Positions 1,381 to 10,912 are shown, counted from the first letter of the stretch. The stretch: DNA of 10,912 nt from a virus (IMGVR_UViG_2667527592_000012); one strand, 5' to 3'. The notes: generated by a model from the sequence alone, not told the origin. A program made the numbers and translations.

Positions 1381-1953
1381 ATGATCATGCTTATTGGCTA
1401 TGTACGCGTGTCAACAAATGACCAGAACACCGATTTGCAACGTAATGCACTGAACTGCGCGGGATGTGAGCGGATTTTTGAGGATAAAATCAGTGGCACC
1501 AAGTCCGACAGACCAGGGCTGAAAAAGCTGCTCAGGACACTATCGGCAGGTGACACACTGGTTGTCTGGAAGCTGGACAGGTTGGGGCGCAGTATGCGGC
1601 ATCTTGTTACTCTGATAGAAGAGTTGCGCCAGCGCGGCGTGAATTTCAGAAGTCTGACTGACAGTATTGATACCAGTACCCCAATGGGCCGTTTCTTTTT
1701 TCATGTCATGGGTGCCCTGGCTGAAATGGAACGCGAACTGATAGTTGAACGTACCAGGGCAGGGCTGGCTGCAGCTCGTGCTAAAGGCAGAGTAGGTGGA
1801 CGCCGTCCTAAGTTGACTACCGAACAGTGGGCACAGATTGGACGTTTACTCGAGGCCGGAGAATCAAGACAGCGTATTGCACTGATTTTTGATGTGGGCG
1901 TTTCTACCATTTATAGAAAATTTCCGGCGAATGAGAACAATGAATCGCCCTGA
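1381..1953 (+). CDS. Serine recombinase, DNA invertase (Gin/Hin/Pin/Cin family)
   Basis: 190-aa ORF; N-terminus MLIGYVRVSTNDQNTDLQRNAL... with the catalytic Ser in YVRVSTNDQ, and C-terminal HTH. Closely resembles Gin/Pin as recalled. The true start may be ATG 1387, which has GAGGG 8 nt upstream. Confidence 0.93.
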   Translation: MIMLIGYVRVSTNDQNTDLQRNALNCAGCERIFEDKISGTKSDRPGLKKLLRTLSAGDTLVVWKLDRLGRSMRHLVTLIEELRQRGVNFRSLTDSIDTSTPMGRFFFHVMGALAEMERELIVERTRAGLAAARAKGRVGGRRPKLTTEQWAQIGRLLEAGESRQRIALIFDVGVSTIYRKFPANENNESP

Positions 1954-2095: not shown

Positions 2096-3268
2096 ATGGC
2101 TCAGGATTACCACCACGGAGTGCGCGTTGTTGAAGTCAACGAAGGCACCCGATCCATTACCACGGTGAGCACCGCCATCGTGGGTATGGTCTGCACGGGC
2201 GATGATGCCGATGCAAAAATGTTTCCTCTTAATAAACCCGTGCTGATCACTGATGTGCTGACTGCCAGCGGTAAAGCGGGTGAGTCCGGCACGCTGGCCC
2301 GTTCGCTGGATGCCATCGCTGACCAGGCAAAACCCGTGACCGTTGTTGTGCGTGTGCCGCAGGGGGAAACGGAAGAAGAAACCACGACCAATATCATCGG
2401 CGCAGTGACTGCTGAAGGTAAAAAAACAGGCATGAAAGCTCTGTTATCTGCCCAGTCACAGCTCGGCGTTAAACCGCGCATTCTCGGCGTGCCAGGCCAC
2501 GATAACAAAGCCGTTGCGACTGAGTTGCTGAGAGTGGCGCAAAGCCTGCGTGGGTTTGCTTACCTGTCAGCGTATGGCTGCAAGACAGTGCAGGAGGCGA
2601 TCACTTACCGCGAAAACTTCAGCCAGCGCGAAGGGATGCTGATCTGGCCTGACTTTACTGGCTGGGACACGGTGCTGAATGCCGAAGCAACGGCATATGC
2701 CACCGCTCGTGCGCTCGGTCTGCGCGCCAAAATTGATGAGCAGACCGGGTGGCACAAAAGCCTGTCCAACGTGGGCGTGAACGGTGTCACCGGAATTTCT
2801 GCTGATGTGTTCTGGGATCTGCAGGACCCGGCAACCGATGCGGGACTGCTTAACCAGAACGACGTCACCACGCTTGTGCGCAAGGATGGTTTCCGCTTCT
2901 GGGGTTCCCGCTGTCTGAGCGATGATCCGCTTTTTGCCTTCGAAAACTACACCCGCACGGCGCAGGTGCTGACGGACACAATGGCAGAAGCGCACATGTG
3001 GGCGGTGGACAAACCGCTGAACCCGTCGCTGGCGCGCGACATTATCGAGGGCATCCGCGCCAAAATGCGCAGCCTGGTCAGTCAGGGCTATCTCATTGGT
3101 GGTGATTGCTGGCTGGACGAGTCAGTGAACGACAAAGACACGCTGAAAGCCGGAAAACTCACCATCGACTATGACTACACGCCAGTGCCACCACTTGAAA
3201 ATCTGATGCTGCGCCAGCGCATCACCGATCAGTACCTGGTGAATTTCGCCAGCCAGGTCAGCGCGTAA
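2096..3268 (+). CDS. FI: Tail sheath protein (P2 gpFI family)
   Basis: 390 aa; AGGAGG 9 nt upstream of ATG. Sequence [19 protein letters not shown]...[21 protein letters not shown] matches P2 FI as recalled. Confidence 0.95.
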
Positions 3269-3277
3269 GGGGATAAC

Positions 3278-3793
3278 ATGGCTTTACCACGCAAATTAAA
3301 ACATCTGAACCTGTTTAACGACGGGAACAACTGGCAGGGGATCGTAGAGTCGCTGACGCTGCCGAAATTCACCCGCAAATATGAGAAGTATCGCGGCGGT
3401 GGAATGCCTGGTGCAGTTGATGTGGATCTGGGGCTTGATGACAGTGCGCTGGACACAGAATTTTCCATTGGTGGTACTGAACTGCTGCTGTTTAAGCAGA
3501 TGGGCAAAGCCACGGTGGATGGCATCCAGTTGCGCTTTACCGGCTCTATCCAGCGTGACGATACCGGAGAAGTGCAGGCCGTGGAGCTTGTGGTGCGTGG
3601 ACGTCACAAAGAAGTGGATTCCGGCGAGTGGAAGACGGGCGAAAGCAACACCACCAAAGTGACCAGTACCAACAGCTACGCGAAGCTGACCATCAATGGT
3701 GAGGTGCTCTATGAAGTGGACCTTATCAACATGGTGGAAATTGTGGACGGTATGGACCTGATGGAAGCGCACCGCAACGCCCTCGGCCTCTGA
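3278..3793 (+). CDS. FII: Tail tube protein (P2 gpFII family)
   Basis: 171 aa; MALPRKLKHLNLFNDG...; starts 10 nt after the FI stop; size and N-terminus match P2 FII as recalled. Confidence 0.93.
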   Translation: MALPRKLKHLNLFNDGNNWQGIVESLTLPKFTRKYEKYRGGGMPGAVDVDLGLDDSALDTEFSIGGTELLLFKQMGKATVDGIQLRFTGSIQRDDTGEVQAVELVVRGRHKEVDSGEWKTGESNTTKVTSTNSYAKLTINGEVLYEVDLINMVEIVDGMDLMEAHRNALGL

Positions 3794-3804
3794 TATATCT
3801 GAAC

Positions 3805-3822
3805 GGCGCGGGATACCGCGCC
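3805..3822 (+). other. GC-rich hairpin (7-bp stem GGCGCGG/CCGCGCC, loop GATA) between FII and E; no following T-tract
   Basis: Perfect 7-bp inverted repeat read directly from the sequence. Possible attenuator or RNA-stability element. Confidence 0.35.
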
Positions 3823-3847
3823 AGAACCCAATTTACAGGACAGCAAA

Positions 3848-4150
3848 ATGAGTGATAAGCAGACTGAAAAGACCATTCAACTGGATACCCCCATCAAGCG
3901 CGGTAAAACAGAAATCACCGAAATTGTGCTGCGTAAACCGCAGTCCGGTGCGCTGCGCGGTACACGCCTGCAGGCCATTATGGATATGGATGTGAACGCG
4001 ATGATGACCGTGATCCCCCGCATCTCCAGTCCGGCACTGACTGCACAGGAAATTGCAGAGATGGACCCGGCAGATCTCACTGCCATGTCGGTTGAGGTTG
4101 TCACTTTTTTGTTGAAGAAGTCGGTGCTTGCCGGTTTACCGACAGCCTGA
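3848..4150 (+). CDS. E: Tail assembly chaperone gpE (zero-frame product)
   Basis: 100-aa ORF directly upstream of the tape measure gene; contains the slippery heptamer near its 3' end. Confidence 0.9.
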   Translation: MSDKQTEKTIQLDTPIKRGKTEITEIVLRKPQSGALRGTRLQAIMDMDVNAMMTVIPRISSPALTAQEIAEMDPADLTAMSVEVVTFLLKKSVLAGLPTA

Positions 4151-4284
4151 CGGTTGACGATCTGGTGGCAGATATCGCCACCATTTTTCACTGGCCGCCA
4201 TCCGTTACTGACGTTATGCCGCTGACCGAAGTGCTGGAATGGCGGTATAAAGCGATTCAGAGAAGCGGGGCCAACGATGAGTGA
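3848..4284 (+). CDS. Tail assembly chaperone E+E' (-1 frameshift fusion product)
   Basis: Shifting -1 at 4105-4111 gives ...FFVEEVGACRFTDSLTVDDLVADIATIFHWPPSVTDVMPLTEVLEWRYKAIQRSGANDE*, resembling the P2 E' extension as recalled. It overlaps the T start (4277) by 8 nt. Confidence 0.8.
4105..4111 (+). other. Programmed -1 ribosomal frameshift site (slippery heptamer TTTTTTG)
   Basis: T6G within the last codons of E (..ACT TTT TTG..). The -1 frame is open from here to TGA at 4282-4284. Confidence 0.8.
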
Positions 4285-7200
4285 TAATAACCTGCGGCTG
4301 CAGGTCATTCTTAATGCGGTTGACAAACTCACCCGCCCATTCCGTGCTGCACAGGCCAGTTCGAAAGAGCTGGCTGGCGCAATCAGAAACTCCCGTGACG
4401 CATTAAAGCAACTCAATCAGGCGGGTAACAGCCTGGAAAAATTTCGCAAGCTGCAGGCCGATAACAAGAAGTTAGGCGACAGGCTGAACTATGCCAGACA
4501 GAAGGCTAATTTGCTTAGCTCTGAGCTGGAGTCGATGGAACAACCATCACAACGGCACCTTGTGGCTTTAGGTCGGCAAACGCTGGCAGTCCAACGTCTG
4601 GAAGAACAACAAAAATATTTGCAGAAGCAAACGGCGCTTGTGCGTGCAGAACTGTACCGGGCGGGAATTTCTGCGAAAGATGATGCGGGAGCAACTGCCC
4701 GTTTAGCCCGTGAAACATCACGTTATAACCAGGAACTGTTGAAACAGGAGGCGCGGCTGAAGCGACTGGGGGAAGCTCAGCGCAGGATGAATGCAGCGCG
4801 TGCCAGTTATGCCCGTTCGCTGGAGGTGCGCGATCGCATCGCTGGAGCCGGAGCCACCACCACGGCTGCAGGGCTGGCAGTGGGGACGCCAGTGATGGCG
4901 GCAGTAAAAAGCTATACCAGCATGGAAGATGCCATGAAAGGTGTGGCAAAGCAGGTCAATGGTCTGCGTGACGATAATGGCAACCGCACTGCACGTTTTT
5001 ATGAAATGCAGGATGCCATCAAGGCTGCCAGCGAACAGTTGCCGATGGAAAACGGTGCGGTGGACTTCGCTGCACTGGTTGAAGGTGGTGCGCGCATGAA
5101 CGTCGCAAACCCTGACGACAGCTGGGAAGACCAGAAACGTGACCTGCTGGCCTTCGCCAGTACGGCAGCAAAGGCGGCAACAGCCTTTGAGCTGCCAGCG
5201 GATGAACTGTCAGAAAGTCTGGGGAAAATCGCCCAGCTCTACAAAATACCTACCCGCAATATTGAACAGCTCGGCGATGCGCTGAACTATCTGGATGATA
5301 ACGCCATGTCGAAAGGGGCGGACATCATTGATGTCATGCAACGTCTGGGCGGTGTGGCTGACCGTCTGGATTATCGTAAAGCGGCGGCACTGGGTTCCAC
5401 CTTTCTGACACTGGGCGCTGCGCCGGAGGTTGCAGCCAGTGCAGCAAACGCGATGGTGCGTGAATTGTCCATTGCCACCATGCAAAGCAAGAGTTTCTTT
5501 GAAGGGATGAATCTGCTGAAACTCAATCCTGAAGTGATTGAAAAGCAGATGACGAAGGATGCGATGGGAACTATCCAGCGTGTGCTGGAGAAGGTGAATG
5601 CTCTGCCGCAGGACAAGCGTCTGTCTGCCATGACCATGTTGTTTGGTAAAGAGTTTGGTGATGACGCGGCGAAACTGGCAAACAACCTTCCGGAACTGCA
5701 GCGCCAGCTAAAACTGACAGCGGGCAATGATGCGCTCGGTTCCATGCAGAAAGAATCCGACATCAACAAAGACTCACTTTCTGCTCAGTGGTTGCTGGTC
5801 AAAACCGGAGCGCAGAACACCTTCAGCAGCCTGGGCGAAACGCTGCGCCAGCCGCTGATGGATATTCTGTACACGGTGAAAAGCATCACGGGGGCGTTGC
5901 GCCGCTGGGTGGAAGCTAACCCGGAACTGACAGGCACACTGATGAAAGTAGCGGCTGTTGTGGCTGCGGTTACCGTAGGCCTCGGCACCTTAGCGGTGGC
6001 GCTGGCTGCAGTGCTGGGGCCGCTGGCAGTCATCCGTCTGGGATTCTCTGTGCTGGGTATCAAAACGTTACCTTCTGTTACGGCAGCAGTAACACGAACC
6101 AGCAGCGCGTTGTCCTGGTTAGCTGGCGCTCCACTGGCACTGCTGCGACGCGGGCTTGCTTCATCGGGCAACGCAGCGGGTTTACTTACTGCTCCGTTGT
6201 CGTCTTTGCGTCGCACGGCATCACTGACGGGGAATGTCCTGAAAACTGTAGCAGGTGCGCCGGTTGCACTGTTCCGGTCTGGATTATCCGGTTTACGTGC
6301 TGTTGCTGTGATGTTTATGAATCCTTTGGCGGTACTGCGCGGTGGACTGGCCGCCGCAGGCACGGTGCTGCGAGTACTGGCATCTGGTCCACTGGCGATG
6401 CTGCGCGTTGCCCTGTATGCCGTATCTGGTCTGTTAGGTGCTCTGCTCAGTCCGATAGGTCTTGTGGTTACTGCGCTGGCGGACGTGGCGCTGGTTGTCT
6501 GGAAATACTGGCAACCCATCACCGCATTTCTCGGTGGCGTGGTGGAAGGATTCAAAGCGGCGGCAGGACCCATCAGTGCCGCATTCGAACCGCTTAAGCC
6601 TGTGTTCCAGTGGATTGGCGACAAAGTGCAGGCGCTGTGGGGCTGGTTTACTGATTTGCTGACGCCCGTTAAGTCGACTTCTGCCGAACTGCAGAGCGCA
6701 GCGGCAATGGGGCGACGATTCGGGGAGGCACTGGCGGAAGGGCTGAATATGGTCATGCATCCGCTGGACTCCCTGAAATCCGGCGTATCCTGGTTGCTGG
6801 AAAAACTCGGCATTGTCAGTAAAGAGGCCGCAAAGGCGAAACTGCCGGAAAGCGTGACGCGTCAGCAACCTGCGACGGTGAATGCAGACGGTAAAGTGAT
6901 GATGCCATCGGGTGGTTTTCCGTCATGGGGATATGGCTTTGCGGGGATGTATGACAGCGGCGGCTATATCCCGCGCGGGCAGTTTGGCATCGTCGGTGAA
7001 AACGGGCCGGAAATTGTTAACGGCCCGGCAAATGTGACCAGCCGGAGAAATACAGCTTCACTGGCTGCCGTTGTTGCTGGAATGATGGGCGTTGCTGCCG
7101 CGCCTGCAGAGCTTCCACCGTTGCATCCTTTGGCACTTCCCTCGAAAGGCGGCGAAGCGATGGTGAGTCGTGCAGCCACTGTGCCGCCCGTTCAACGGAT

Positions 7201-7354
7201 TGAGGCACCGACGCAGATCATCATTCAGACGCAGCCAGGACAAAGTGCGCAGGATATTGCGCGGGAGGTGGCCCGCCAGCTTGATGAACGTGAACGCAGG
7301 CTGAAGGCAAAAGCCAGGAGTAACTACAGCGATCAGGGGGGATACGACGCATGA
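4277..7354 (+). CDS. T: Tail tape measure protein (P2 gpT family)
   Basis: 1025 aa; coiled-coil-rich N-terminal third, central hydrophobic repeat region, Gly-rich C-terminus; located between E/E' and U. Confidence 0.93.
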   Translation: MSDNNLRLQVILNAVDKLTRPFRAAQASSKELAGAIRNSRDALKQLNQAGNSLEKFRKLQADNKKLGDRLNYARQKANLLSSELESMEQPSQRHLVALGRQTLAVQRLEEQQKYLQKQTALVRAELYRAGISAKDDAGATARLARETSRYNQELLKQEARLKRLGEAQRRMNAARASYARSLEVRDRIAGAGATTTAAGLAVGTPVMAAVKSYTSMEDAMKGVAKQVNGLRDDNGNRTARFYEMQDAIKAASEQLPMENGAVDFAALVEGGARMNVANPDDSWEDQKRDLLAFASTAAKAATAFELPADELSESLGKIAQLYKIPTRNIEQLGDALNYLDDNAMSKGADIIDVMQRLGGVADRLDYRKAAALGSTFLTLGAAPEVAASAANAMVRELSIATMQSKSFFEGMNLLKLNPEVIEKQMTKDAMGTIQRVLEKVNALPQDKRLSAMTMLFGKEFGDDAAKLANNLPELQRQLKLTAGNDALGSMQKESDINKDSLSAQWLLVKTGAQNTFSSLGETLRQPLMDILYTVKSITGALRRWVEANPELTGTLMKVAAVVAAVTVGLGTLAVALAAVLGPLAVIRLGFSVLGIKTLPSVTAAVTRTSSALSWLAGAPLALLRRGLASSGNAAGLLTAPLSSLRRTASLTGNVLKTVAGAPVALFRSGLSGLRAVAVMFMNPLAVLRGGLAAAGTVLRVLASGPLAMLRVALYAVSGLLGALLSPIGLVVTALADVALVVWKYWQPITAFLGGVVEGFKAAAGPISAAFEPLKPVFQWIGDKVQALWGWFTDLLTPVKSTSAELQSAAAMGRRFGEALAEGLNMVMHPLDSLKSGVSWLLEKLGIVSKEAAKAKLPESVTRQQPATVNADGKVMMPSGGFPSWGYGFAGMYDSGGYIPRGQFGIVGENGPEIVNGPANVTSRRNTASLAAVVAGMMGVAAAPAELPPLHPLALPSKGGEAMVSRAATVPPVQRIEAPTQIIIQTQPGQSAQDIAREVARQLDERERRLKAKARSNYSDQGGYDA

Positions 7355-7836
7355 TGATGGTGCTGGGATTGTACGTGTTTATGCTGCGCACTGTGCCGTA
7401 TCAGGAACTGCAGTATCAACGCAGCTGGCGACATGCGGCAAACAGCCGGGTCAACCGACGTCCGTCCATGCAGTTTCTGGGACCGGACAACGACATGCTG
7501 ACGCTTTCTGGTGTTCTTATGCCGGAGATAACGGGCGGCAGGCTGTCGTTGCTGGCTCTGGAGCAGATGGCAGAACAGGGAAAAGCATGGCCCCTGATTG
7601 AAGGCAGCGGCACGATTTACGGCATGTATGTGATTGAGGGACTGAATCAGACTAAAACGGAGTTTTTCCGCGATGGTATGCCGCGCCGGATTGAGTTCAC
7701 CCTGTCGCTCAAACGGGTGGATGAATCCCTGTCCGATATGTTCGGTGATCTCAGTGCGCAGCTGAATAATTTGCAGGATACGGCAACGTCTGCCTTAAGC
7801 GATATCAGTAAAACGGTGGGAGGGCTGCTGTCGTGA
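7351..7836 (+). CDS. U: Tail protein gpU (tail completion/terminator family)
   Basis: 161 aa; start overlaps the T stop (ATGATGATG; true start may be 7354 or 7357); position and size as in P2. Confidence 0.88.
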   Translation: MMMVLGLYVFMLRTVPYQELQYQRSWRHAANSRVNRRPSMQFLGPDNDMLTLSGVLMPEITGGRLSLLALEQMAEQGKAWPLIEGSGTIYGMYVIEGLNQTKTEFFRDGMPRRIEFTLSLKRVDESLSDMFGDLSAQLNNLQDTATSALSDISKTVGGLLS

Positions 7837-8933
7837 ATTTCAGCTCTGAACTGCTTAACAAAGGCAACAAAACTCCCGCATTCAGCATCAGTATTGAGGG
7901 AAAGGATATCACCACTGTGCTGGATAACCGCCTGATGAGTCTGACGCTGACGGACAATCGGGGCTTTGAAGCAGACCAGCTTGATCTGGAACTGGACGAC
8001 GCCGACGGAAAAATCGTGCTGCCGCGCCGTGGTGCGGTCATCACGCTGGCGCTGGGCTGGAAGGGGCAGCCGCTTTTCCCTAAAGGGGCATTCACAGTGG
8101 ACGAGATTGAACACACTGGCGCACCGGACCGCCTGACTATCCGGGCGCGAAGTGCTGATTTTCGGGAAACGCTGAATACCCGCCGTGAAAAATCGTGGCA
8201 TAAGACCACCGTCGGGGAAGTGGTGAAGGAAATAGCCGCGCGGCACAAGCTGAAGATGGCACTGGGTAAAGACCTGTCGGATAAGCCCGTGGAGCATATA
8301 GACCAGACTAATGAGAGTGACGGCAGTTTTCTGATGCGGCTGGCGCGACAGTACGGTGCCATCGCGTCGGTGAAAAATGGCAATCTGTTATTCATCCGGC
8401 AGGGGCAGGGCAAAAGCGCCACTGGTAAACCTCTGTCAGTGATAACTATCACACGCAAGGACGGCGACAGTCACCGATTTACCCTGGCAGATCGCGGAGC
8501 CTACGCGGGCGTAATTGCCAGCTGGTTGCATACCCGCGAACCTGCGAAGAAAGAAAGCACCACGGTGAAGCGTAAGCGCAGAACTAAGAAGCAGAAGAAA
8601 GAGCCAGAAGCGAAGCAGGGCGATTACCTGGTGGGTACGGATGAAAACGTGCTGGTACTTAATCGCACTTATGCCAACCGGAGCAACGCCGAACGAGCGG
8701 CGAAAATGCAGTGGGAACGCCTGCAACGCGGCGTTGCGTCATTTTCTCTACAACTGGCAGAAGGGCGGGCAGATCTCTACACGGAAATGCCTGTGAAGGT
8801 CAGTGGTTTTAAACAGCCGATAGATGATGCGGAATGGATCATTACGACTCTGACACATACCGTCAGCCCGGATAACGGTTTTACAACCAGTATTGAACTT
8901 GAAGTGAAAATTAATGATCTTGAAATGGAATAA
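7833..8933 (+). CDS. D: Tail protein gpD (phage late control D family)
   Basis: 366 aa; GTG start overlapping the U stop (GTGA); last gene of the late tail operon, immediately before ogr, as in P2. Confidence 0.88.
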   Translation: MNFSSELLNKGNKTPAFSISIEGKDITTVLDNRLMSLTLTDNRGFEADQLDLELDDADGKIVLPRRGAVITLALGWKGQPLFPKGAFTVDEIEHTGAPDRLTIRARSADFRETLNTRREKSWHKTTVGEVVKEIAARHKLKMALGKDLSDKPVEHIDQTNESDGSFLMRLARQYGAIASVKNGNLLFIRQGQGKSATGKPLSVITITRKDGDSHRFTLADRGAYAGVIASWLHTREPAKKESTTVKRKRRTKKQKKEPEAKQGDYLVGTDENVLVLNRTYANRSNAERAAKMQWERLQRGVASFSLQLAEGRADLYTEMPVKVSGFKQPIDDAEWIITTLTHTVSPDNGFTTSIELEVKINDLEME

Positions 8934-9001: not shown

Positions 9002-9220
9002 ATGATGAATTGTCCAAAGTGTGGTCATGCGGCGCACACAAGGAGCAGTTTTCAAGTAACGGAAAGCACCAAAGAGCGTTACTGCCAGTGCCAAAATATT
9101 AACTGCGGGAGCACTTTTGTTACCCATGAAACAGTGGTCCGGTTTATTGTGACACCCGCACTGATTGCTACTGCTCCTCCACATCCATTGCCAGGTGGTC
9201 AGGGGCATATGAATTTTTGA
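9002..9220 (+). CDS. ogr: Late transcription activator Ogr (Ogr/Delta zinc-finger family)
   Basis: 72 aa from ATG 9002: MMNCPKCGHAAHTRSSFQVTESTKERYCQCQNINCGSTFVTHETVVRFIVTP... with the C-x2-C...C-x4-C zinc finger; same length as P2 Ogr (recalled). AGGG 8 nt upstream. Confidence 0.9.
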   Translation: MMNCPKCGHAAHTRSSFQVTESTKERYCQCQNINCGSTFVTHETVVRFIVTPALIATAPPHPLPGGQGHMNF

Positions 9221-9227
9221 GAAAGAG

Positions 9228-9251
9228 AACCTGCTACGGCAGGTTTTTATT
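9228..9251. terminator. Intrinsic terminator after ogr, shared with the convergent cargo ORF
   Basis: 7-bp stem AACCTGC/GCAGGTT with 4-nt loop TACG followed by TTTATT on the + strand; overlaps the stop codon of the - strand ORF. Confidence 0.6.
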
Positions 9252-9729
9252 CATCTGGGATCTCACCCGTTTCAAGAAAATGTATAAAGCCAGGCTCATC
9301 TATGATGATTGTGCCTTTCATCCTGGCTGCCGATACTTTTGATGGGCCTGCATTGTAACCGCAACAGAGCATCTGAAGGCTTTGGGTTACAGAGGTTCTT
9401 ACCGTTAATCCTTGTTCATTCGCCTTATCAACCAATCTTTCTTTATCTGCTTTCTTAAATCCGGTGAAACACACATCGAATGTATTTTTTTTCGGACCAG
9501 ACTGCTTAGTGAGATGTGAGTAGTTTTCGGGGAGGAATGACGCGCATTCCTGAATGGCTTGTTCTGGTGAATCGTACTGTTTAAGAATGCGGTCTTTTCG
9601 GAAGGTTTTTATTCGATCGGTGTTCTTACAAATGCCCTGTATATGATTTTCGCTATAACTGATGCTCTGTATAGAGTGAACACCGATACGACCATTTGCA
9701 TTGATGTAAACAAAGTGAAGTTCTTCCAT
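9247..9729 (-). CDS. Hypothetical cargo protein, 160 aa; N-terminal WYL-like motif and C-terminal BRCT-like region (both inferred by eye)
   Basis: Intact ORF with AGAGG 6 nt upstream of ATG; visibly AT-rich relative to the flanking late genes. C-terminus FDVCFTGFKKADKERLVDKANEQGLTVRTSVTQSLQMLCCGYNAGPSKVSAARMKGTIIIDEPGFIHFL aligns by eye with the LigA BRCT domain; N-terminus ends in RIKTFRKDRI, reminiscent of the WYL-domain R-x-FR-x-DRI signature. Confidence 0.75.
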   Translation of the reverse strand: MEELHFVYINANGRIGVHSIQSISYSENHIQGICKNTDRIKTFRKDRILKQYDSPEQAIQECASFLPENYSHLTKQSGPKKNTFDVCFTGFKKADKERLVDKANEQGLTVRTSVTQSLQMLCCGYNAGPSKVSAARMKGTIIIDEPGFIHFLETGEIPDE

Positions 9730-9755
9730 GTGAAACCTCTTTGCATGATTTCAAG

Positions 9756-9794
9756 ATGGCGACAGGCAAGATGGACGCAAAAGTCTGTCGCCAT
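9756..9794. repeat. Perfect 10-bp inverted repeat (ATGGCGACAG ... CTGTCGCCAT, 19-bp spacer) in the cargo-gene upstream region
   Basis: Read directly from the sequence; an 8-bp direct repeat CAAGATGG occurs at 9752-9759 and 9767-9774. Confidence 0.5.
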
Positions 9795-9810
9795 TTTGCC
9801 GCCACTACCA

Positions 9811-9844
9811 AAGAAAAAGGGGCTACGCTTTCACGTAACCCCTT
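9811..9844 (-). terminator. Intrinsic terminator of ssrA, encoded on the prophage side of the junction
   Basis: On the - strand, 8 nt after the tmRNA 3' end: stem AAGGGG...CCCCTT with an inner 4-bp extension and 6-nt loop, followed by TTTTTCTT. Confidence 0.65.
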
Positions 9845-9852
9845 GATTTATT

Positions 9853-10215
9853 TGATGGAGCTGGCGGGAGTTGAACCCGCGTCCGAAATTCCTACATCCT
9901 CGGTACTACATGCTTAGTCAGTCTTTACATTCGCTTGCCAGCTGCGGACGGACACGCCACTAACAAACTAGCCTGATTAAGTTTTAACGCTTCAACCCCA
10001 GGCAGGGCTTCCACGCGATCTCTTTTGGGTTTGACCTCTCTTGATCCCCGTCCTAAGAGCGGAGGCTAGGGAGAGAGGGCTCTAAGCAGGTTATTAAGCT
10101 GCTAAAGCGTAGTTTTCGTCGTTTGCGACTATTTTTTGCGGCTTTTTACGAGGCCAACCGCCCCTCGGCATGCACCTTGGGTTTCGCAAATCCCGTCGAA
10201 TCCAGAATCAGCCCC
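9853..10215 (-). ncRNA. ssrA: tmRNA (SsrA), 363 nt
   Basis: The reverse complement begins GGGGCTGATTCTGGATTCGACGGG and matches the E. coli tmRNA sequence as I recall it through ...CCCGCCAGCTCCA; the terminal triplet reads TCA rather than CCA. Confidence 0.95.
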
Positions 10216-10429: not shown

Positions 10430-10912
10430 TTAACGGTGGGCATTTTTCATGATACGCGCTTTATCCACCTGCCATTCGCGTTCTTTGATATCTGAACGTT
10501 TATCGTGCTGTTTCTTACCTTTGGCGACGCCGATTTTCACTTTGCACCAGGCATTTTTCCAGTACAGGGAGAGCGCCACTACGGTATAGCCTTCTCGATT
10601 GACGCGACCGTACAATGAGTCCAGTTCGCGCTGGTTGAGAAGTAACTTGCGGGTACGGGTAGGATCGCACACCACATGCGTGGAGGCCACAGCCATTGGC
10701 GTGATGTTAGCGCCAAACAGAAATGCCTCTCCGTCGCGCAGAAGGACATAGCTGTCGCTGATATTGGCTTTTCCTGCGCGCAGGGATTTAACCTCCCAGC
10801 CTTGCAGGGCAAGTCCCGCTTCGAACTCTTCTTCGATAAAGTATTCGTGACGGGCGCGCTTGTTAAGCGCGATGGTCGCTGAACCAGGTTTATGTGCTTT
10901 TTTCTTCGTCAT
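10430..10912 (-). CDS. smpB: SsrA-binding protein SmpB (complete)
   Basis: 160 aa, [51 protein letters not shown]...; recognised as E. coli SmpB, directly upstream of ssrA on the same strand. The start codon is the last three bases of the window. Confidence 0.97.

Follow-up and report, generated by a model that had tools for sequence, protein, structure and literature searches.

A WYL-BRCT gene in the lysogeny region of P2-like temperate phages, probably encoding a DNA-binding accessory factor

The window analyzed here, a stretch of 10,912 nt, covers the right end of a P2/186-like (Peduoviridae) prophage that uses ssrA as its integration site. Between the late-gene activator gene ogr and the junction with the host lies a further gene, and the question is what it encodes and which role its product may have for the phage. 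The sequence-only reading had described it as an ORF of 160 codons on the strand opposite to the late operon, between the ogr terminator and the ssrA junction, with AGAGG as ribosome-binding site 6 nt before the ATG; its coordinates were confirmed, and the ribosome-binding site was found where it had been placed. The features of the window are as follows.

1381–1953, plus strand: gene of a DNA invertase (Hin/Cin type)
2096–8933: tail genes FI, FII, E, T, U and D
9002–9220, plus strand: ogr, late-gene activator, convergent neighbor of the WYL-BRCT gene (RefSeq annotation of near-identical prophages)
9228–9245: palindromic hairpin between the convergent ogr and WYL-BRCT genes, followed on the plus strand by a T-run (terminator scan)
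9247–9729, minus strand: CDS of the 160-aa WYL-BRCT protein, 483 bp, ATG start and TAA stop (stop codon 9247–9249)
9250–9480, minus strand: BRCT domain, residues 84–160, with conserved T89-G90, K96 and K131
9481–9567, minus strand: linker, residues 55–83, two short helices, variable in sequence and lowest in model confidence
9568–9729, minus strand: WYL domain, residues 1–54, a five-stranded Sm-like barrel ending in T42-F43-R44-K45-D46-R47
9736–9740, minus strand: Shine-Dalgarno sequence AGAGG, 6 nt 5' of the ATG, read directly in the sequence
9752–9804: cluster of three TGGCG[AG]CA copies (9757–9764 plus; 9786–9793 and 9797–9804 minus)
9817–9844, minus strand: phage-borne intrinsic terminator of ssrA, between ssrA and the WYL-BRCT gene (12-bp stem and T-run)
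9853–9897: attR core, 45 nt, 3' end of ssrA, phage/host junction (attL/attR comparison)
9856–10215, minus strand: tmRNA gene ssrA
10430–10912, minus strand: smpB

As judged from its sequence, the hairpin at 9228–9245 is likely a bidirectional terminator. For ogr, a mechanical ORF call starts at GTG 8957 (87 aa); the RefSeq start in identical prophages is ATG 9002 (72 aa). At the far end of the window, the minus-strand ORFs 206–808 and 808–1359 adjoin the invertase gene; their translations, compared by eye, resemble a tail-fiber assembly protein and a tail-fiber C-terminal segment, and 206–1953 is laid out like an invertible segment for host range, situated where P2 has Z/fun. The WYL-BRCT gene had also been called AT-rich relative to the late genes, and separate acquisition had been suggested. 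The GC content over 9151–9750 is indeed 0.40–0.46 versus 0.52–0.60 in the late genes; the ogr region is just as low.

The position of the gene relative to the host DNA follows from the att sites. An identical 45-mer is present at attL and attR of a prophage of E. coli CFSAN061761 which is 99.7% identical to that of the window; the counterpart in the window is 9853–9897, and this core agrees with the annotated attP of Fels-2. Hence all DNA left of 9853 belongs to the phage, and so does the terminator 9817–9844, which lies outside the core though it now ends ssrA. In the integrated state, the WYL-BRCT gene is located 124 nt downstream of ssrA. Position 9855 of the window is A, and G in all relatives examined (phage records, five other genera, and attL and attR of CFSAN061761); the 3' end of the encoded tmRNA consequently reads ...GCUCC-A-UCA versus the canonical A-CCA, due either to a sequencing error or to a real change that would need 3'-end repair. 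Just outside attL of CFSAN061761 (locus L052, 1–2246), genes of an AAA ATPase and a DUF4435 protein, a pair with the domain composition of PARIS, occur together with an integrase gene, which points to tandem integration of a satellite or island at ssrA.

The motif TGGCG[AG]CA is found six times in the whole window, compared with 1.5 expected copies, and the three clustered copies lie within 48 nt, just before the ribosome-binding site and 23–75 nt upstream of the start codon, where they form a 14-nt inverted repeat. Other genera have the motif in the corresponding place, among them Pantoea, in a prophage with an attB other than ssrA. The cluster probably represents arm-type sites of the integrase in the P' arm of attP; alternatively, the repeats could be a regulatory site or a 5'-UTR hairpin of the WYL-BRCT gene. 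A search of the window for a sigma-70-like promoter between the ATG and the terminator of ssrA found none, so that lysogen expression of the gene is predicted only; in other genera, a promoter candidate, TTCATT-17-TGTAAT, was seen upstream by eye only.

A word-indexed protein search retrieved 122 homologues at E ≤ 1e-3, down to 30% identity, and an exhaustive profile search 2,619 cluster representatives, 209 of which had E ≤ 1e-30. E values of 7e-102 to 4e-13 were reported for homologues of the CDS, and phrog_2561 is matched over its full length (E 2e-77). Comparison with orthologues in Erwinia, Klebsiella, Plesiomonas, Tatumella, Citrobacter and Pantoea gave dN values of 0.17–0.31 at saturated dS. 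By these measures the 160-aa ORF is a genuine gene, not a chance reading frame, and is under strong purifying selection. The motifs that had been picked out by eye proved to be the most conserved columns of the family alignment, namely TFRKDRI, CFTGFKK, SVT..L..LCCGYNAGPSK and IIDE..F..FLETGE. The family is already known as a PHROG and as RefSeq "BRCT domain-containing protein"; searching the literature, we found no paper tying WYL-BRCT to a phage function, and no experimental or comparative study of the family.

Many relatives contain extra N- or C-terminal regions. No Pfam match was obtained for these regions in the long relatives tested, and the attempt to deduce a function from fused domains was discarded. 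In two Pasteurellaceae P2-like prophages (L038, 7536–8492; L042, 7719–8519), an N-terminal extension of about 95–150 residues contains hydrophobic membrane helices; these fusions look real because about 10 nt separate the repressor stop codon from the ORF starts. A domain of about 150–185 aa without Pfam match is fused to the WYL-BRCT N-terminus in an Oceanospirillum MAG (L012, 7443–8489); the same domain is encoded by a separate ORF (6587–7036) in a Colwellia MAG (L049), before the gene of a 388-aa protein (7056–8222) with a BRCT domain at its C-terminus.

The C-terminal half of the protein had been assigned to the BRCT domains of the kind found in NAD-dependent DNA ligase, and this assignment is borne out. 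It has the order β-α-β-β-α-β-α of the BRCT fold, which comprises about 80–95 residues. The window protein scores 19.5 bits against PF00533 (gathering cutoff, 21.3 bits), and 60 out of 68 aligned homologues match this family, with a best E value of 2.1e-6; a search of the PDB with the family profile leads, at E values of about 5e-5, to RFC1 of yeast and man and to Thermus LigA, in each case to the BRCT domain. Beyond the family itself, sequence similarity is highest to the BRCT regions of NAD-dependent ligases, among them phage ligases. The phosphate pocket of the RFC1/LigA type is recognizable from a Thr-Gly pair after β1, a basic residue in α1, and a Lys opening α2; conservation within the family is 100% for T89, G90 and K131 and 96% for K96, and the four residues align with T166, G167, K209 and R174, respectively, of yeast Rfc1. 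The human RFC1 residues T415, R423 and K458 were reportedly found by Kobayashi and coworkers (2006 and 2010) to bind the 5' phosphate, and we take the T-G, K/R and K pocket positions of the family to correspond to them. In cryo-EM structures of RFC-DNA complexes, the recessed 5' end sits in a cavity lined by Lys-208 of yeast Rfc1, next to K209 (PMC9293004). However, the BRCT domain is acidic (pI 5.3; family median 5.8) and the whole protein near-neutral, which is unusual for a general DNA binder and calls for caution. Throughout the family, the C-terminal tail ETGE[IV]P[DE] (9250–9273 in the window) is conserved. In a few members the last residues are ...IPDF, with a faint resemblance to the C-terminal tail of SSB; mimicry of the SSB tail was rejected because most members are without the Pro-Phe end.

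The N-terminal half had been thought to resemble WYL domains. Its 54 residues form a five-stranded Sm-like barrel which among known structures is most like WYL domains, the best PDB matches being PafBC, CapW, BrxR and DriD. The window protein gave no match to PF13280 at E ≤ 10; 17 of the 68 homologues did so (best E value, 1.5e-5), and two multidomain relatives reached 27.6–28.5 bits, above the cutoff of 21.8. When the N-terminal profile was compared with the PDB, only the WYL motifs of PafBC and PafC were touched, by matches which were not significant, and neither CapW nor DriD was retrieved by a sequence search starting from a relative whose WYL signal is stronger. In CapW/BrxR, ssDNA is contacted by a Ser, by the two Arg of RWHVR and by a distal Arg. 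In the weak, motif-level alignment to PafBC/PafC, (E/N)-H-I-Q takes the place of RWHVR of CapW; R44 and R47 of TFRKDR are conserved in the family. The arginine pair by which CapW contacts ssDNA is thus, as far as this weak alignment goes, apparently replaced by E/N...Q, and ssDNA may not be the ligand. Characterized WYL domains bind ssDNA and thereby report DNA damage or phage activity (PMC11662680); ssDNA binders include the WYL domains of CapW, DriD and PafBC (PMC11662680; PDB titles). The linker contains helices at residues 55–62 and 67–73 (DSSP), its residues 71–80 have a pLDDT of 69, and profiles of the LigA family also align over part of it. The pTM of the full model, 0.52, indicates that the arrangement of WYL and BRCT domains is flexible.

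Two enzymatic identities were tried and rejected. The match to NAD-dependent DNA ligase is confined to residues 42–146, which align with the last ~100 positions of TIGR00575 at 19.6 bits (cutoff, 444), and the protein, with its 160 aa, has no adenylation (KxDG), OB, Zn-finger or HhH domain. As to DEDDh exonucleases, only positions 229–307 of the 331 positions of NF004719, i.e., the C-terminal BRCT domain, are matched, at 26 bits (cutoff, 389). Judged from these alignments, the name "DNA ligase" in phrog_2561 and in phage records of RefSeq is wrong, as is "putative exonuclease protein" in phage Cartapus, both being based on the BRCT domain only, and these names in phage databases need correcting for the family. 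PADLOC-DB 2.0 contained no full-length match, so that a catalogued defense component was likewise rejected. Searches against ligase, exonuclease, HTH and PADLOC families matched no catalytic or HTH domain in the WYL-BRCT protein. The gene codes for a small, non-enzymatic two-domain protein, and it is an accessory gene in the lysogeny region of P2-like temperate phages.

The latter statement is based on the genomic setting, for which 49 loci, one per species, were annotated by similarity to the genes of the window and by Pfam. The gene is situated between the att junction and ogr, as in the window, in six of the 49 species loci, and after a co-oriented immunity repressor gene in 17, three of them with one gene in between; int frequently comes next. 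The distance from the repressor stop codon to the start of the WYL-BRCT gene is mostly 2–56 nt. The repressors encoded upstream belong to three unrelated types, i.e., 186 CI (PF07022 and PF16452), lambda-type proteins (HTH_3 and Peptidase_S24), and short P2 C-like HTH proteins. Look-ups of precomputed Pfam annotations agree, for Yersinia ruckeri, Xenorhabdus bovienii, Serratia ficaria and several metagenomic contigs. The order in X. bovienii is CI gene, 35 nt, WYL-BRCT gene, 3 nt, int; in Mannheimia PHL101, operators and promoter are followed by cI and, 4 nt later, by the WYL-BRCT gene; Vibrio PV94 has the repressor gene, the WYL-BRCT gene, a hypothetical gene and int; and in a group of Burkholderia phages, an XRE repressor gene and a hypothetical gene precede the WYL-BRCT gene, which is convergent with D.

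For Escherichia phage Cartapus and for Yersinia phage MLG42, circular maps show the order cI, int, attP, WYL-BRCT gene, all in a single direction, so that the WYL-BRCT gene is the last member of the leftward cI-int region. As read from these maps, integration would split the gene from cI-int and leave it behind ssrA. Its location, downstream of the repressor gene or within the repressor-int-att region and co-oriented with these genes, is that of an accessory gene of a lysogeny operon. The linkage to phage immunity repressors is distinctive and was not reported before, and the protein is a stand-alone arrangement of known binding domains. The 401-aa gene located between int and attP of phage Cartapus (L002, 4818–6023) is annotated "putative RES protein, NAD+ binding domain" and gave no Pfam match at E ≤ 0.01; a two-gene system with it was rejected, the 401-aa gene being present in 11 E. 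coli genomes versus 171 with the WYL-BRCT gene, and missing from phage MLG42.

The sequence-only reading had proposed to ask whether homologues sit at prophage ends or in defense islands. In P2-like phages, homologues occupy the repressor, int and att regions; distant homologues are heterogeneous in location: some are found in integrase-bearing islands with restriction or abortive-infection genes, some in ordinary chromosomal surroundings, without a recurring neighbor. A conserved partner gene was not detected among 119 neighbor ORFs of 27 distant loci, which included only five integrase genes and single occurrences of defense genes. The distribution of the gene is patchy. It is carried by 171 of 5,426 complete E. 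coli genomes (991 match any part of the query) and, in a tblastn search, encoded by 28 of 50,697 phage records, all of 31–47 kb and assigned to Peduoviridae wherever taxonomy was checked; no match to a clearly virulent phage occurred among these 50,697 records. Only 5 of 72,556 plasmids carry it, and a plasmid leading-region gene was rejected on this count. Fels-2, SopEPhi, RE2010 and Klebsiella relatives have only the att segment in common with the region of the window. Genes of membrane proteins, of a reverse transcriptase and of a KAP NTPase are among the cargo that occupies one slot together with the WYL-BRCT gene. At three loci of other P2-like prophages (L064, 6537–8108; L025, 9644–11164; L027, 8468–9922), there is a slot directly after the WYL-BRCT gene, inside the repressor-int region, which accommodates defense-type cargo, namely an RVT_1 reverse transcriptase of 523 aa or a P-loop NTPase of the KAP family. 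In prophages of the P2 type, the int-att and int-primase regions have been described as minor defense hotspots (PMC13586616).

Because related P2-like phages place the gene right after the immunity repressor, its product is probably a lysogeny-linked, DNA-binding accessory factor. Superinfection exclusion or defense, exerted as a binder or sensor of ssDNA/5'-phosphate DNA, appears to be its most probable role, with a probability of about 0.4, in view of the presumed co-transcription with any type of repressor, the patchy distribution, the defense-type neighbors in the slot and the reported hotspots. The protein would be made in the lysogen or during establishment, and its target would be ssDNA or an oligonucleotide, bound by the WYL domain, in combination with a 5'-phosphate end or junction, bound by the BRCT domain; gaps, nicks, cohesive ends, and replication or recombination intermediates are candidate structures. 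In superinfection exclusion or anti-phage defense, it might cap or sequester such structures on incoming foreign DNA, or else sense them and signal to a host factor or to a neighboring, often membrane-bound, protein; the membrane-helix fusions could then represent a membrane-tethered binder or a self-contained sensor-effector. Against this role stand the lack of a recognizable effector domain and of a conserved partner gene.

A rather doubtful alternative is a sensor of DNA damage or ssDNA, co-produced with the repressor, by which the prophage would tune its own switch. Such a protein might stabilize lysogeny, for instance if it kept RecA off gaps or cooperated with the repressor, or it might promote induction or excision by a route other than Tum/LexA. 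The tight, probably translational, coupling to the repressor gene in many phages would fit, as would the fact that the characterized WYL proteins among the structural matches are all ssDNA-responsive regulators of damage or defense responses and that the BRCT class recognizes 5' junctions of gaps. However, three structurally unrelated repressor families upstream argue against a specific protein-protein partnership with the repressor, the protein is without a domain that reads DNA sequence, and the E. coli prophage already has a DinI-like/Tum-type module; moreover, the gene is accessory, being missing in most close P2-like relatives, and has homologues outside prophages.

We regard it as unlikely that the protein is a counter-defense or host-takeover factor of infection or establishment, i.e., a decoy whose BRCT and WYL domains cover DNA ends or gaps, or act as competitors of LigA or of other host proteins that depend on BRCT, so that the phage genome is shielded from end-sensing nucleases or defense systems. 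The kinship of the BRCT half with ligase BRCT regions, those of phage ligases included, is compatible with such a decoy, and so are the small WYL-only and BRCT-only proteins which a structural search revealed in other phages and the location in the circular genome downstream of cI-int, from which integration would separate the gene. However, placement after the repressor gene points to lysogenic rather than lytic expression, the tblastn matches are confined to temperate P2-like phages, with no clearly virulent phage among them, and no known anti-defense family was matched.

It is quite improbable that the protein assists site-specific recombination or the establishment of the genome through binding to intermediates with nicks or gaps at att or cos: the gene, said to be always adjacent to int or to the attP arm, and preceded in the window by the conserved TGGCG[AG]CA repeats just 5' of its start, is far from int in PHL101 and the Burkholderia phages, where it lies between the repressor gene and D, most P2-like phages integrate without it, and homologues exist in non-phage contexts.

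Returning to exclusion or defense as the preferred role, a single 483-bp gene would, if this is true, provide a minimal mechanism based on binding only. If the switch is where it acts, a classic regulatory circuit would gain a new input. Two further readings are speculative and not to be expected: the protein might be a repressor-coupled, RecA-independent sensor of ssDNA/5'-phosphate gaps that feeds into the lysis-lysogeny switch, or integration at ssrA might move the gene from cI-int into the wake of a very strong host promoter. Either would amount to a new, effector-less kind of prophage decision-making or exclusion by means of two binding domains. WYL domains are emerging as ssDNA sensors by which bacteria switch on damage and immune responses. 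To date their action is understood only within transcription factors or enzymes, and here such a domain is joined to a BRCT domain of the 5'-phosphate type alone.

Among the known accessory genes of P2-like phages, old, tin and fun(Z) of P2 and glo of Vibrio phage K139 are expressed in the lysogen as moron or exclusion genes, and glo is located in the repressor-int region. The WYL-BRCT gene is likewise patchy in distribution, resides in a P2-like genome and is placed for expression with the lysogeny genes; it has no relation in sequence or domains to old, tin, fun(Z) or glo, and its role in exclusion is predicted only. Of the entries in PADLOC, the candidate PDC-S48 and SspE have a C-terminal BRCT-like stretch in common with it (1.8e-7 and 1.3e-3, respectively), but the match covers residues 83–153 only, and the rest of those proteins has no counterpart in the WYL-BRCT protein. 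In phrog_2561, the family of the window protein has a full-length representation whose functional label, "DNA ligase", is unsupported. The WYL-BRCT combination itself was catalogued computationally before (Makarova et al. 2014 / Anantharaman et al. 2012; PMC4012209); in the survey of Makarova et al. (PMC4012209) it appears only in the list of fusions, and the lysogeny-operon context and the extent of the family are absent. With the wHTH-WYL-WCX regulators CapW/BrxR, DriD and PafBC the protein shares the WYL barrel. It differs from them in having (E/N)-(H/Y)-(I/L) in place of W-Y-L, in that the ssDNA-contacting arginines are not evident, and in the fusion to BRCT; the 160-aa protein starts at the WYL barrel and runs into the BRCT domain, with neither wHTH nor WCX and no match to an HTH family, and therefore cannot be a transcription factor of the CapW/BrxR/DriD/PafBC type. 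The BRCT domains of RFC1 and LigA provide the same fold, the best sequence matches, and the same T-G, K/R and K pocket positions, but in the phage protein the domain stands alone with WYL, outside any ligase or clamp loader, is acidic overall, and ends in the ETGE[IV]P[DE] tail specific to this family.
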